NCBI GenBank assembly: GCA_043826455.1
Contig: JBDRQD010000039.1
Coordinates: 14,242 to 78,241, forward strand
Source of the DNA: Candidatus Bathyarchaeota archaeon
GTDB taxonomy: Archaea; Thermoproteota; Bathyarchaeia; TCS64
DNA: 64,000 bases
Direction of reading: 5' to 3'
Part shown: piece by piece, positions 27,001 to 30,000 of the stretch
Layout: the number at the start of each line of letters is the position of its first letter
Numbering within the stretch: position 1 is the stretch's first letter
Made by a program: the position numbers

Positions 27001-30000
27001 TTATGCCGGCCCTGTTCTTCTCACGCCTCATCTCGCTGATGACGGCTATCACCGTGTCGCCGGTCCTCTCGGCCTCCTCGTCCACCTGGGACTCGTCGTA
27101 CTCGGGCCAAGGCGACACGTTGATGCTAGTGTCGGGGTCGTACATGGTGCGCCATATCTCCTCGGTGAGGTGGGGTGTGATGGGGGCCATGAGCTTCAGC
27201 ATAGGCGCCACAGTGTGGTAAAGGGTGTGCTGGGCGGCTATCTTGCCGTCGCCGTCTCCGTAGAGCCGGGTCTTGGCGGCCTCCAGATAGTCATCGCAGA
27301 AGGTGTGCCATATGAAGTTCCTGACCGCCTCCGTGGCGTTCATGAAGTCGCACGCCTCCATAGTCTCCGTCGCCCGCTTGATGGTTCTCTGGAGCTTGCT
27401 GGTGATCCACCTGTCCAGCAGCCGGGGCTCAGCCTCCATAGCCGGTTCGTAGTCCTCCAGGCGCATGCTGGCGAACCTGCAAGCGTTCCACAGCTTCCTC
27501 ATGAAGCGCCACCCGTACTCCACGTCCTCCCACCTGAACGGGATGTCGGTGCCCGTGCTGCCTCCGGCCGCCGCCCACTGCCTGGGGGCGTCGCACCCGT
27601 GCTTGCTGAATACCTCGGGTGAGCTAACGAAGTTGCCCAGGCTCTTGCTCATCTTGCGGCCGTCGGCGCCCAGCACCATGCCGTTGATGAGCACCGAGTC
27701 GTAGGGGGTCTCGTCGAAGAGGGCCAGGTGCCTCACCATGAGGTAGTAGGCCCATGTTCGTATGATGTCTTGGCCGCTGGGGTGGACCGAGGCGGGGAAC
27801 TGGCGCCTCCAGTTGGGTTTGTCCGGCCACCCGGCGTGTATGGCGCAGGTGAGGCTGCTGTCGAACCAGGTGTCCATGACGTCGGTGTCGGGCACGTACT
27901 CGGTGGAGCCGCAGCTGCAGACGTCGTTGATCTTGGTGACCTTTGGGTCTACAGGGAGCTCCTCTGGCTTAGCTAGCCTGATCTTGCCGCATTTCTTGCA
28001 GTACCATGCGGGGACGGGCGTGGCGAAGACGCGCTGCCTGCTGAGCACCCAGTCCCAGTCCAGGCCCGTGGCCCAGTCTATGAGCCGCTGCCTCATCCAG
28101 TCAGGGTACCAGGTGATGCGCTTAGCCGTCTCCACCACCTTGTCGGTTAGGCTGATGGTGCGCATGAACCACTGTTTGGCGTTCACCACCTCTATGGGGG
28201 TGTCGCACCGCCAGCATAGTCCCACCTCCTGGTCTATGTCCTTCTCCTCCTTGATGAGGCCGGCCTCGCGCATGTCCTTGACTATTGCCTTCTGGCCGTC
28301 TTGGATGCGCATCCCAGCGTACTTGCCGGCCACAGGCAGGAGGACGCCCTTGCCGTCTATGAGGTTCACCACGAGCAGGTTGAACCGGGCCACGGCCACC
28401 ACGTCGGCCTTGTCGCCGTAGGTGCAGATCATCATGGCTCCGGTGCCGAACTCTGGGTCCACATCGTCGTTGGCTATGATGGGCACCTCCTGGCCGGAGA
28501 CAGGCACCTTGGCCTTCTTGCCGATGAGCCCTTTGTAGCGTTTGTCGCCTGGGTGGACGCCTAGGGCTACGCAGGCGGGCAGGTAGACGGGGCGGGTGGT
28601 GGCTATGAGCACCTCGCCGCCGGACACCTTGAAGGGTATGGTGTATATCTTGCCCTGCTTGTGGTCGTGCTCCACCTCGGCGTCGGCGATGGCGGTCTCG
28701 CAGCGGGGGCACCAGTTGATGGGGTGCTCACCCTTGTAGATCATGTCTTTCCCGTAGAGCAGGAGGAAGCTGAGCTGCACCTTGCGGAGGTACTCGGGCT
28801 CCATGGTGCGGTACTCGGTGGTCCAGTCGATGCTGCAGCCCAGGCGCTGGACGGCGGTCTTCATCTTGGCTATGTACTGCTCTATCCACTCCTCGCACAT
28901 GCGGCGGAACACGTCCGGCGGCACGTCGCTCTTCCTGATCTTCTTGGCCTTCTCCACCGCGACCTCAGTGGGCAGCCCGTGGCAGTCCCATCCCTGGGGG
29001 AAGAGCACGTTGTAGCCCCTCATGCGCTTGTACCTGGCCCGTATGTCGAAGTAGGTCCAGTTCAGGACGTTGCCCATGTGGAAGTCGCCGCTGGGGTAGG
29101 GGGGCGGCGTGTCCACGCTGTAGACGAGGCGCGTGGTGTCGTCCCAGTCGTACCTGTGGATGGCCTCCTCTTCCCACCGCTTCTGCCACTTCTCCTCGAC
29201 CTGGAGGAAGTCTATCTTCTTGGGTAGTACTTTCAATGTTGTGTTTCTCCTTTGTGTCGGCGCCTGCGGGAACCCGTTTTGATGCTGGAATGCTTGCCAG
29301 GGTTTCTTAAAAGGTTGTCCGCGGCGTGTCCGCTGGGCTTGTCCGGGTTTTTCCTAGATCCCCGCGGGGGGATCGACAAAACAATTCCCCATGTTCCTCA
29401 ACTCAGACACCTTATTGGGTGAGGAGCCATAATATATGTTTTCAGGTTCAGAGGCAGGTTAACTGGGCCGCCGTGGGTGGCTGAGAAGGGTTTCGTACGT
29501 AATTATGTGCGTTATTTTGTTTTCGCTCTTTCCTCAGCTATTTCGTTGGAGATCACTCACGAGGGTTTTGATTATTTTGGTGCCGTGGTAGTCTGTCTCT
29601 CGGTGCTTGAGCCCTGATTTTAGGAGGTTTTCTCCGCCTAAAATCGATACTCCCCTACCTTTTTTGCATATATGCTTCGGGTCATGGCTTCGCGGGATTG
29701 GTTTACTCGTTTTATGACTGAAAAAACCGCCATAAAATGATACCCCCCTACGTTTTTTCACATCAGGCTCTCCATCACGCCTTGCTTTATGTGTTGAATG
29801 GGCCGCGTTTTTGTATGGAATGGATAGCGTTTTTGCGTAGATTGGGATCGAAAAGGCGGGTTTCCTGGCCTCCTTTTGGCGTGGGGCGGCCGTTTCCGGT
29901 TTTTCTTGCTCTACCCCCCTCCCCCCTCTCTGGGGCTGTGGTGCTGGCGTGGTGAGTGTAACGTTTTCCGGGAGTGGCTTATCCCATGCCGGACGGGATA

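Follow-up and report, generated by a model that had tools for sequence, protein, structure and literature searches.

In a 64,000-nt stretch of DNA from a Candidatus Bathyarchaeota archaeon of the order TCS64 (the window, to whose positions all coordinates below refer), the gene for valine--tRNA ligase, valS, is preceded by a short upstream open reading frame (uORF) with a single valine codon, from which an overlapping frame runs open to the start of valS. The locus raises the question of whether a ribosome waiting at this codon could change frame and so switch the gene on, as the initial annotation had proposed for valS and further aminoacyl-tRNA synthetase and biosynthesis genes. The core of that proposal, namely that the cognate codon has a fixed position, that a single shifted frame stays open as far as the gene or runs into it, and that the shift acts as the on-switch, withstood all sequence tests applied here, and the leaders are probably amino-acid sensors that work by programmed, amino-acid-specific frameshifting at hungry codons.

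The valS leader

All parts of the valS leader lie on the minus strand. An A/T-rich box (29429..29443), found at a similar distance in relatives, may act as a BRE/TATA-like promoter; it is followed by a Shine-Dalgarno (SD)-like site (29396..29401) complementary to the 3' end of the genome's own 16S rRNA and by the presumed sensor uORF (29354..29392), whose 12 codons include Phe-Val at positions 5 and 6, in agreement with the earlier description of the leader at 29229..29409. Within the uORF, a G-run resembling an internal SD (29386..29390) is placed 5 nt (T-register) ahead of the P-site codon; the variant in this genome is a weaker one, and its presumed role is that of a shift stimulator. The predicted +1 shift site (29375..29380) consists of TTT in the P site (29380-29378) and the waiting A-site Val codon GTC (29377-29375), and a G+C hairpin (29357..29374) begins immediately 3' of the latter. 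The +1 frame (29233..29376), here called the runway, comprises 47 codons and ends in a TGA that overlaps the TTG start of valS (29236). The -1 frame is stopped at 29309, within a second conserved motif (29307..29322) that is TATA-like and ends in the TAA serving as this stop. A further SD-like site (29247..29252) precedes valS (26816..29236), which starts with TTG, encodes 806 aa and has an NCBIfam match above cut-off. A search of the leader (29150-29600) returned no Rfam match, and no T-box even at an E-value of 10. A placement of the finding 14241 positions lower was rejected, as window positions 14700-15400 hold no such leader. RNA-library contigs, which come from relatives (the RNA runs contain 0.00-0.06 of the words), end near 29390-29410, only a weak hint at the promoter.

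A gene-first recount located valS in 66 of the 79 genomes of the order. Of 70 valS match rows, 57 were fetched (the other 13 had no N-terminus), 54 of them with upstream DNA, and sampled by gene in this way the leader motif was present in 50 of the 54; three valS leaders of genus g13 have an open frame but no motif, a point against the frameshift reading. The consensus of the uORF family is ATGGGGWATHGYTTTRTY. Codon 6, left free in the search, is Val in all 50 leaders and is written only as GTC or GTT, and the P-site codon is TTT in all 50, a codon chosen for 4% of the Phe residues that 11 genes of this genome encode. In every leader the +1 frame stays open (50 vs 12.5 expected from dinucleotide shuffling, a comparison among related genomes and not a p-value), stop codons numbering 120, 0 and 77 in the 0, +1 and -1 frames, respectively. 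The +1 stop falls -7 to +32 nt from the valS start, never in frame with ValS, and takes the form of an NTGA overlap in 33 leaders, at 21 different Val-to-start distances among the 50, while the -1 stops come 57-139 nt earlier. The internal SD has its best register at 5 in 41 of the 50, and the hairpin behind the Val codon (mean z -2.76; below -1.5 in 45/50) is formed by many different paired stems. A long conserved fold of the valS leader was not found (three pairs in the consensus; whole-leader folding z -0.08).

Leaders of other synthetase and biosynthesis genes

The other sites named together with valS were present at their places on the contigs. Each leader contains the codon of its own amino acid, in nearly all cases as a single cognate codon per uORF and not as a codon run, with the predicted shift directed +1 in ileS, thrB and ilvB and -1 in trpS, trpB2, thrS and cysS. 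The leaders of valS, ileS, ilvB, trpS, thrS and cysS are of the runway type, in which a stop-free frame ends at the main start. Stop codons in the 0, +1 and -1 frames amount to 53, 0 and 12 for ileS, 60, 52 and 0 for trpS, 49, 26 and 0 for cysS, and 57, 45 and 0 for thrS. Open frames were counted against the dinucleotide-shuffle expectation in ileS (30 vs 16.9), trpS (27 vs 7.9), cysS (27 vs 12.4) and thrS (26 vs 7.2), figures that are not p-values because the genomes of the order are kin and not independent. When the sensed codon was left free, Ile was recovered in 29/30 ileS leaders, Trp in 27/27 trpS, Cys in 27/27 cysS and Thr in 26/26 thrS leaders. Trp leaders also precede trpD-like and chorismate-mutase-like genes, where 200-344 nt are stop-free in the -1 frame (shuffle P 0.005-0.02, 8 loci). 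At one locus (L174), the shift site is pinned by a stop that lies 10 nt ahead of the Trp codon in a frame that is TrpS itself.

The codons at the shift sites are rare in genes (TTT 4%, AAA 12%, CAA 6%, ACA 11%, TGT 7%). Re-pairing in the P site would mostly involve two of three bases; it is perfect for AAA-A in most ileS leaders, and thrB has NAA-A. Internal SD-like sites are located 6-7 nt before the P site in the +1 leaders (GGAGG register), whereas in the -1 leaders they lie 11 nt (thrS) and 10 nt (cysS) away, inside the 9-14 nt range given in the literature; in Trp leaders an internal SD is scarcely developed, that of trpS being weak.

Several details of the initial annotation required revision. 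The thrS uORF was thought to start at ATG, a codon seen in this genome; the conserved start is GTG, which makes Thr codon 6. The start proposed for the cysS uORF is doubtful, and a slip of tRNA-Leu does not fit there. An Ile leader with TTA was indeed seen at ilvA, but the ilvA on contig C28 of this genome has none. For aroF, already described as weak, a C-CAA-Phe leader was present in 3 of 8 loci (-1 stop at -9, -11 and -29), the other 5 lying inside an operon; its membership is suggestive only, and cysS and aroF are the less clear cases.

Enzymes encoded in the shifted frame

In the cimA-type, trpB2 and thrB genes, and in half of the valS genes of a fifth Bathyarchaeia family (f26), the shifted frame is the enzyme itself. 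In 46 of 49 genes for the cimA-type synthase, the enzyme frame lacks a usable start; with the sensed codon left free, Ile occupies the site in 49/49, followed directly by a stop in only 12, and the P-site codon is TTT in all 99 valS and cimA-type leaders taken together. The same holds for 25 of 27 trpB2 genes, whose enzyme frame offers only a CTG without an SD. For thrB, Thr was found in 26 of 29 leaders with the sensed codon left free, and three genes (L517, L520, L521), none with a usable start in the enzyme frame, have their ThrB frame closed by a TAG 5 nt ahead of the Thr codon, which both pins the shift next to that codon and removes the rival start at GTG. Among f26 valS leaders, 17 of 18 have Val by motif and the eighteenth has Val as well; in one of them (L484) a TAA in the ValS frame lies on the P-site codon and again pins the shift site. 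Where the motif was lost, in trpB2 L128 and thrB L516, the loss coincides with a new ordinary start. The fused enzymes without a start of their own and the shift-pinning stops constitute the strongest evidence, and a frameshift is very likely needed for the fused enzymes. Together with the f26 Val leader of another design, they go beyond the earlier reading.

The system had been described as spread through the order TCS64, and it is present there; it is, however, not confined to it. The cimA fusion occurs in four other Bathyarchaeia families, and f26 has a separate -1 Val leader of different design. The record of Ca. Bathyarchaeum tardum M17C-01 also contains the cimA fusion (L724). No order-type Val motif was detected in front of valS when 40 stretches belonging to other families (3 cut short) were examined, f26 thrS (5 loci) and trpS (4 loci) are located inside operons and have no leader, and the query used did not recover f26 ileS itself. 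Among the cimA-type matches listed in a GTDB scan, +1 fusions account for 112 of 119 loci, 97 of them without an in-frame ATG, GTG or TTG. In the first GTDB scan, 50 of the 119 matches listed were unlike the reference genes and mostly chance bacterial matches, and a scan with the f26 motif was swamped by such matches (at least 120 listed). The cimA label itself requires care: both paralogues belong to one isopropylmalate-synthase subfamily with NF002085 as the only match, and atlas names are mixed. The active-site strand differs between the two paralogues, a difference that may mark CimA. CimA and LeuA could not be told apart by a PDB search, and two supplementary files of PMC10989822 contain no cimA, leuA or trpB entry.

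Proposed mechanism, competing readings and known systems

In the proposed mechanism, the ribosome starts at the SD-led uORF and at codon 5-8 meets a re-pairable P-site codon followed by one sensed codon, an arrangement seen directly in the sequence. With plentiful charged tRNA, the codon would be read, the ribosome would stop a few codons on and expression of the gene would stay low. With charged tRNA in short supply, the A site would remain empty and the peptidyl-tRNA would slip, either +1 from TTT, AAA, CAA or GAA (Val, Ile, Leu and the Thr of thrB) or -1 from C-CAA or G-GAC (the Thr of thrS, f26 Val and Trp), the internal SD-like site probably helping to hold and steer the ribosome. In the runway genes, the new frame would bring the ribosome to the main start for termination-reinitiation; archaeal coupling, according to PMC12548453, works at gaps to about 30 nt with NTGA as the commonest overlap. 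More synthetase or biosynthetic enzyme would then restore charged tRNA and close the loop. We consider it likely that shifting depends on starvation, and are moderately confident that shift and re-initiation are the whole story at this valS site.

This last point hinges on how valS is kept low. Opening its ribosome-binding region is predicted to cost 9.3 kcal/mol on average (49 leaders) vs 13.5 for 80 control starts, and a predicted stall at Val lowers this cost by more than 1 in only 20% of leaders. With a start more open than the controls, nothing obvious holds valS off without coupling, and since the start is not predicted to be masked, the output step could be re-initiation or anti-termination. 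Under anti-termination, which is compatible with re-initiation, sensing and shift at the valS-type runways would be the same and the output transcriptional, shifted ribosomes covering the leader and blocking early termination by FttA (aCPSF1), to which archaeal polarity is attributed in PMC12548453. The unmasked start, the existence of runways of 300+ nt and the conserved T/A-rich motif in mid-leader are consistent with this reading, but it appears rather unlikely, because the runways are not U-rich (T 18-24%) and the stops cluster on the start (33/50 NTGA) more tightly than it needs.

The mid-leader motif, present in 42 of the 50 valS leaders, is similar to the upstream promoter boxes, and a single RNA-library contig begins at 29288, just behind it. 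ValS being essential, the motif could be a second, internal promoter that provides a basal level, on which the frameshift leader would then build. We regard this as improbable: the TAA of the motif always lies in the -1 frame, 68, 71, 74, 77, 80 or 83 nt from the Val codon, and indels upstream of it are multiples of three, a lock to the reading frame that a promoter does not need; the motif is absent from 8 leaders; and its G-rich 5' part has a complement downstream, as in an RNA stem.

A runway ORF started without any shift at the TTG within TTT-GTC, from the internal SD and after drop-off or by a new ribosome, would draw on the modal initiation spacing of this TTG from the G-run; a GTG that ileS and most thrB leaders have in +1, and a CTG in Trp leaders, could be used likewise. 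Such starts are highly improbable as an explanation, since the motif yields TTA (cimA, ilvA, ilvB-Ile) or TTC (Leu variants), which are no starts, neither thrS nor f26 valS offers a start there, the hairpin stands immediately behind the TTG and a stall at Val would block it. The rival starts raised in the initial annotation are reduced: GTG is cut off by TAG in the three thrB genes, and TTG remains for valS alone.

Classical attenuation, in which the stall alone remodels the leader RNA and the open frame is incidental, could use pairing of the uORF G-run with the C-run of the hairpin as an alternative fold, the short complementary arms that flank the valS and cysS runways, and the tandem ilvB leaders, where the SD of the second uORF lies within the 3' arm of the hairpin. 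It deserves very little credence, as it cannot produce the fused enzymes, leaves the absence of stops from one frame and the indels in threes unexplained, and sits poorly with the whole-leader folding score, the lack of an Rfam match and the single sensed codon. Least credible is constitutive, fixed-ratio frameshifting that only lowers expression and senses nothing. The rare site codons, which slow decoding at all times, speak for it; against it, the A-site codon in eight gene families is that of the amino acid which the gene serves, and within one motif family it changes from gene to gene accordingly (Ile/Val/Leu; Thr/Ile).

Leader-peptide attenuators and T-boxes use a cognate codon to sense charged tRNA for aminoacyl-tRNA synthetase and biosynthesis genes. 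The archaeal leaders share this logic and these targets but differ in having one codon and no run, and the reading frame itself would carry the signal. No terminator/antiterminator pair or T-box was found; the fold seen is one hairpin with no U-run behind it, and a conserved long fold is absent. The hungry-codon frameshifting that we favour has several relatives, described in PMC5009743 unless stated otherwise. Bacterial RF2 (prfB) shares a short first frame, a slow A site, +1 re-pairing in the P site, an internal SD-like G-run and a feedback loop, a build shared by the fused cimA-type and thrB genes, whose P-site codons are able to re-pair in +1. In contrast to RF2, the leader A site is a sense codon of the regulated amino acid (Val, Ile, Leu, Thr) and not UGA, the internal SD is 6-7 nt instead of 3 nt from the shift site, and both directions and many genes, all archaeal, are involved. 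The X XXY YYZ heptamer of dnaX/IS-type shifts is absent from the -1 sites, which are C-CAA, G-GAC and A-TTG plus the sensed codon. The internal SD of that type (9-14 nt upstream) gives a mixed picture, with sites in this range in thrS and cysS but a weak one in trpS. In ermCL, ribosomes that shift in the leader ORF travel on across the spacer, and the downstream gene is thereby switched on, as we propose for valS, ileS, ilvB, trpS and thrS; the inducer there is a drug, telithromycin, and a masked start is unfolded, whereas the valS start is predicted to be open and the new frame of the archaeal leaders ends on the start codon. Hungry-codon frameshifting, with an empty A site and a P-site slip in either direction (also PMC8211752), is known as an error or side route, unlike the conserved and gene-matched leaders reported here. 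Antizyme (+1) and C. elegans zip-2 (PMC11831180) likewise sense a metabolite or slow elongation by a frameshift giving a fused product, but they respond to polyamines or general elongation stress and are single eukaryotic genes, not sensors of one amino acid. As in sensor-type programmed frameshifting in general, the archaeal leaders present a conserved frame transition required for, or acting on, the product.

No earlier description of such a frameshift amino-acid sensor was found in the literature searched, and a major review of 2016 says that for trans-frame products specific to starvation 'no examples are known' (PMC5009743). If our reading is correct, these leaders would be the first case in nature in which starvation-induced frameshifting is conserved and serves to sense one specific amino acid. 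They would also add substantially to archaeal recoding, for which a 2021 review gives one demonstrated cellular -1 case (PMC8211752). It may also explain how an abundant, widespread class of sediment archaea tunes its amino-acid supply, and it predicts that in many genomes the cimA-type, trpB2 and thrB genes have been given wrong starts or taken for broken ones. The short cassettes can go straight into reporter assays and might find use as amino-acid biosensors.

In build, the runway leaders resemble duplicated 5' ends of the fused genes in which one sensed codon has been exchanged for another. We lean slightly towards a wider interpretation, a third general cis-acting amino-acid sensor besides attenuators and T-boxes: a movable unit of ~20 nt (start, internal SD, slippery codon and one sensed codon) that would convert a lack of charged tRNA into a change of frame. 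It would have arisen where cimA, trpB2 and thrB begin, been copied to synthetase and pathway genes in both shift directions, been chained into OR gates (ilvB: Val, Ile, Leu) and spread outside Bathyarchaeia to Methanomassiliicoccales. In cysS it would perhaps act as early as initiation, the initiator tRNA moving from one overlapping start to another under Cys shortage.

Four further candidates were rejected. Frameshift-suppressor tRNAs find no counterpart in the anticodon loops, which look ordinary (tRNA-Gln(UUG) was not called, and one tRNA-Lys(UUU) call is only probable). Polymerase slippage or RNA-level repair is at odds with runs of only 3-4 bases and with RNA-library contigs that, at thin cover, have no indel, the latter a point of little weight. 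A five-base hop of the gene 60 kind at the Trp site does not agree with a landing GAC that varies to GAA, GAT, GCT and GGT in relatives. Finally, selection acting on the protein that the +1 frame encodes across the uORF, or initiation at an Ile codon there, would fit variation that looks synonymous in +1 within the order, but the wider cimA variants change residues and lose the codon while keeping TTT-ATY.

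The valS leader and its frames

The valS gene (26816-29236, minus strand, TTG start) is preceded by a leader at 29229-29409, on the minus-strand reading of the window, in which a TATA-like box comes first, then an SD-like site, and after these a 12-codon putative sensor uORF (29392-29354, minus strand). Codon 5 of this uORF is Phe TTT and codon 6 Val GTC, with a G+C hairpin next. The TGA closing the 47-codon +1 frame, counted from the Val codon, overlaps the valS start, and the -1 frame from the same codon ends 73 nt before this +1 stop. No Rfam family matched in the leader, which as a whole folded equally to its shuffles (z -0.08).

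The initial annotation had described a Val codon at a fixed place and an open +1 frame, and sampling by gene rather than by motif bore this out. valS is present in 66 of 79 genomes of the order; 57 of 70 matches were retrieved, 54 of them with upstream DNA, and the motif was found in 50 of these 54. With codons unconstrained, codon 5 was TTT and codon 6 GTC or GTT in 50/50. The +1 frames contained no stop, the two other frames 120 and 77, so that all 50 were open versus 12.5 expected from shuffles. The +1 stop lay at -7 to +32 nt relative to the start (NTGA overlap in 33), the leaders had 21 different lengths (104-164 nt), and the +1 frame was fused to ValS in none. A second motif occurs in 42 of the 50; its distance to the Val codon is 68, 71, 74, 77, 80 or 83 nt, so indels before it come in multiples of three. 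The hairpin behind Val keeps its fold, not its letters, in 45/50. Of the four leaders without motif, three, from genus g13 (L040, L042, L053), have a distinct conserved leader whose frame is open to the valS start; no slippery codon was identified in them, and one has a stop inside the putative uORF.

The observation at valS is confirmed. The amino-acid-sensing frameshift reading is supported, and we consider this verdict as a whole quite likely to be right; the translational shift and the starvation response are themselves predictions from sequence. Two studies include RNA-library contigs from relatives that lie over the leader (29254-29400 and 29278-29390), and one contig spans leader and valS (29063-29288); no indels were seen in those over the leader or valS, which shows little. 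The predicted opening cost of the valS start region was 9.3 versus 13.5 kcal/mol for 80 control starts, these being predicted starts of a G+C-rich genome, so masking does not explain the off state. FttA-dependent anti-termination or a second promoter may contribute to control at valS. Alternatively, the TTG within the shift site, which lies at initiation spacing, could be an ordinary start with no shift involved; the sole argument against this comes from those versions of the motif that carry Ile or Leu.

Elsewhere in the window, a 418-aa ORF two genes from the valS end (25013-26269, plus strand) resembles, by eye, the archaeal peptide chain release factor aRF1. A short C-run/T-run element, found upstream of the valS promoter (29534-29900), at about 14800-14860 and on contigs C15 and C78, looks like a dispersed repeat; partial RNA-library contigs map onto it. 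Also present are tRNA-Arg(GCG) (20276-20353), tRNA-Leu(CAA) (37012-37096) and tRNA-Ile(GAT) (52517-52594).

Runway genes and fused genes

Leaders of ileS, trpS, cysS and thrS were counted in 41 sampled genomes, taking the best 30 loci per gene with the sensed codon unconstrained. The ileS motif was present in 30/30 (Ile 29, Thr 1), with the +1 stop within -25..+35 in all 30; the control frame passed as well in 14, mostly by being the main frame. For trpS the motif occurred in 27/30, Trp in all 27, and the -1 stop lay near the start in 26 and was in frame with TrpS in one. Corresponding numbers were 27/29 for cysS (one locus without N-terminus left out; Cys in all 27, -1 in 27) and 26/28 for thrS (two unusable loci left out; Thr in all 26, -1 in 25). 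The cognate codon and shifted frame claimed earlier for these four genes hence recur in gene-first samples, as do the tandem ilvB leaders: the ilvB motif was found in 26/30 loci, tandem uORFs in 20, and the +1 stop at -4..+10 in 25, with Val, Ile or Leu as sensed codons. Four loci carry g13 GTG-start variants outside the search pattern. A Leu codon stands behind TTT or GTT in ilvB leaders L464, L469, L477, L468 and L475; in the Leu variants, +1 re-pairing of tRNA-Phe on TTT-C would be perfect.

Two ilvA-like genes are preceded by Ile-Ile tandems. A second ilvA-like gene in this genome (contig C25, near 14989, minus strand) has its own in-frame ATG, and a short frame containing an Ile codon extends over its start; this is probably an ordinary gene or a relic. 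The aroF case, already called weak, is weak here as well (three of eight loci). In this genome's aroF leader (L706, contig C28), the Phe uORF is preceded by a tiny Tyr-codon frame and, in another frame, by two Trp codons; together they might form a three-way aromatic sensor. The 485-aa ThrS on contig C72 (L060) matches the archaeal model only beyond position 133 and lacks the N-terminal editing region, which relatives in family f26 retain.

The strongest cases are three enzymes whose frame the uORF directly overlaps. For the cimA-type synthase, a presumptive label taken from gene context and a motif, 49 nt separate the uORF ATG from the conserved DTTLRDG in 29/29 order loci (30 best matches retrieved, 29 with N-terminus), the enzyme being in +1; between uORF start and DTTLRDG, the enzyme frame is free of ATG, GTG and TTG in 46 of 49 loci. 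In trpB2, G-GAC-TGG stands at a fixed place in 27/28 loci with the enzyme in -1, and a CTG without SD is the sole candidate start in 25/27; the 28th locus has lost the Trp codon and acquired an in-frame GTG. In thrB, NAA-ACA occurs in 26/29 loci with the enzyme in +1, and most loci have an in-frame GTG readable as a start. In thrB loci L517, L520 and L521, a TAG 5 nt before the Thr codon separates the GTG position from the enzyme; two of the three loci also have a uORF that ends two codons past Thr. These enzymes can be produced only through a shift within about three codons around Thr. Locus L516 is the reverse, having lost its uORF start and acquired an ordinary ATG.

Slippage model and known systems

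The common build comprises an SD-led start, the sensed codon at position 5-8, a rare conserved P-site codon (in 11 genes TTT makes up 4%, AAA 12% and CAA 6% of the codons of their amino acid) and an open shifted frame. At an empty A site the peptidyl-tRNA would slip, as in hungry-codon frameshifting, which excerpts of PMC8211752 and PMC5009743 describe as a slip at an empty A site. Registers computed with the genome's own 16S end peak at 6-7 for ordinary starts; ahead of the P site, the internal SD-like site has register 5 in valS, 6 in ileS, 10 in thrS and 9 in cysS, which corresponds to 6, 7, 11 and 10 nt when counted from the end of GGAGG. The spacing of the -1 leaders thrS and cysS falls inside the published 9-14 nt, and that of the +1 leaders valS and ileS differs from RF2's 3 nt. 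The exception is cysS, where the supposed start is variable (ATG, TTG, CTG), its SD adjoins it (register 0 in 24/27), and just one tRNA-Leu pair could survive a -1 slip. Initiation at the TTG that precedes Cys would fit better, because ATT or GTG, which overlap this TTG and belong to the -1 frame, could then offer the initiator tRNA a second pairing.

Fused genes operate like RF2, runway genes like ermCL, and attenuators and T-boxes serve the same purpose, but by the defining tests of each the leaders fall outside all four. Sensor frameshifts, taken broadly, are the class that includes them, although their input is unreported for that class; the system is a variant of sensor frameshifting and may turn out to represent a general class of amino-acid switches not described before. 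An excerpt of PMC5009743 knows no example of starvation-specific trans-frame products, and one of PMC8211752 gives a single demonstrated case of archaeal cellular -1 frameshifting. Neither Bathyarchaeia nor such a case was found in the accessible part of PMC3711429. Judging from their excerpts, PMC11831180 concerns a general elongation sensor, PMC12548453 supports the coupling distances, PMC10989822 offers an existing proteome and PMC13733827 is unrelated. No report of this system was found in the literature outside subscription journals and bioRxiv supplements.

Range and possible dispersal of the leaders

The system ranges wider than the initial annotation had claimed, which described it as spread through order TCS64. 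The Ile/Val motif matched in 21 of 70 class genomes outside the order (reversed-pattern control, 1/91 genomes), and 18 of the 21 matches were cimA-type +1 fusions, in four other families (6/8, 6/6, 2/2 and 4/5). A looser GTDB scan gave at least 119 loci; +1 fusions account for 112 of the matches listed, which include one record of Ca. Bathyarchaeum tardum and two of Methanomassiliicoccus. The latter two are leads only because of an in-frame ATG in one and a later GTG in both.

In family f26, valS has a different leader with (C/A)AA-GTY at codons 5-6 (17/18 loci), whose -1 frame is ValS itself in nine and stops adjoining an in-frame ATG or GTG in eight; in L484 a TAA in the -1 frame lies on the P-site codon. 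The nine fused loci contain a conserved in-frame TTG close to the uORF stop, which could serve as an ordinary start.

A complete Trp-motif scan yielded 60 loci: 30 matching trpB2 (two of them over a short stretch only), 11 trpS, seven bacterial chance matches, two incomplete and ten others, where a stop-free -1 frame of 107-344 nt leads up to different genes. These include a PF02885 (trpD-like) protein and chorismate-mutase-like matches that are weak and under the Pfam cut-off. The genes coupled to Trp leaders L667 (501-1030), L702 and L658 encode an unnamed small protein and a 4Fe-4S dicluster protein; aromatic amino-acid catabolism is possibly on the same switch.

The trpS runway is similar to the trpB2 5' end, that of ileS to thrB, and the cimA motif is common to valS and ilvB; from these likenesses, the leaders look like copied cassettes in which the sensed codon was swapped. 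In genome G023 many leaders have decayed together (L038, L128, L156, L209, L245, L470), with the Trp codon lost, a stop in the ileS uORF and the cysS and thrS motifs absent, while the thrB leader is retained; this reads as a natural loss of the regulon. Such leaders also precede genes 78-97% similar to those of this genome in bacterial-titled records (Krumholzibacteriaceae, Patescibacteria, Desulfaltia; L252, L279, L288, L306, L652 and others), which are probably mislabelled archaeal bins.
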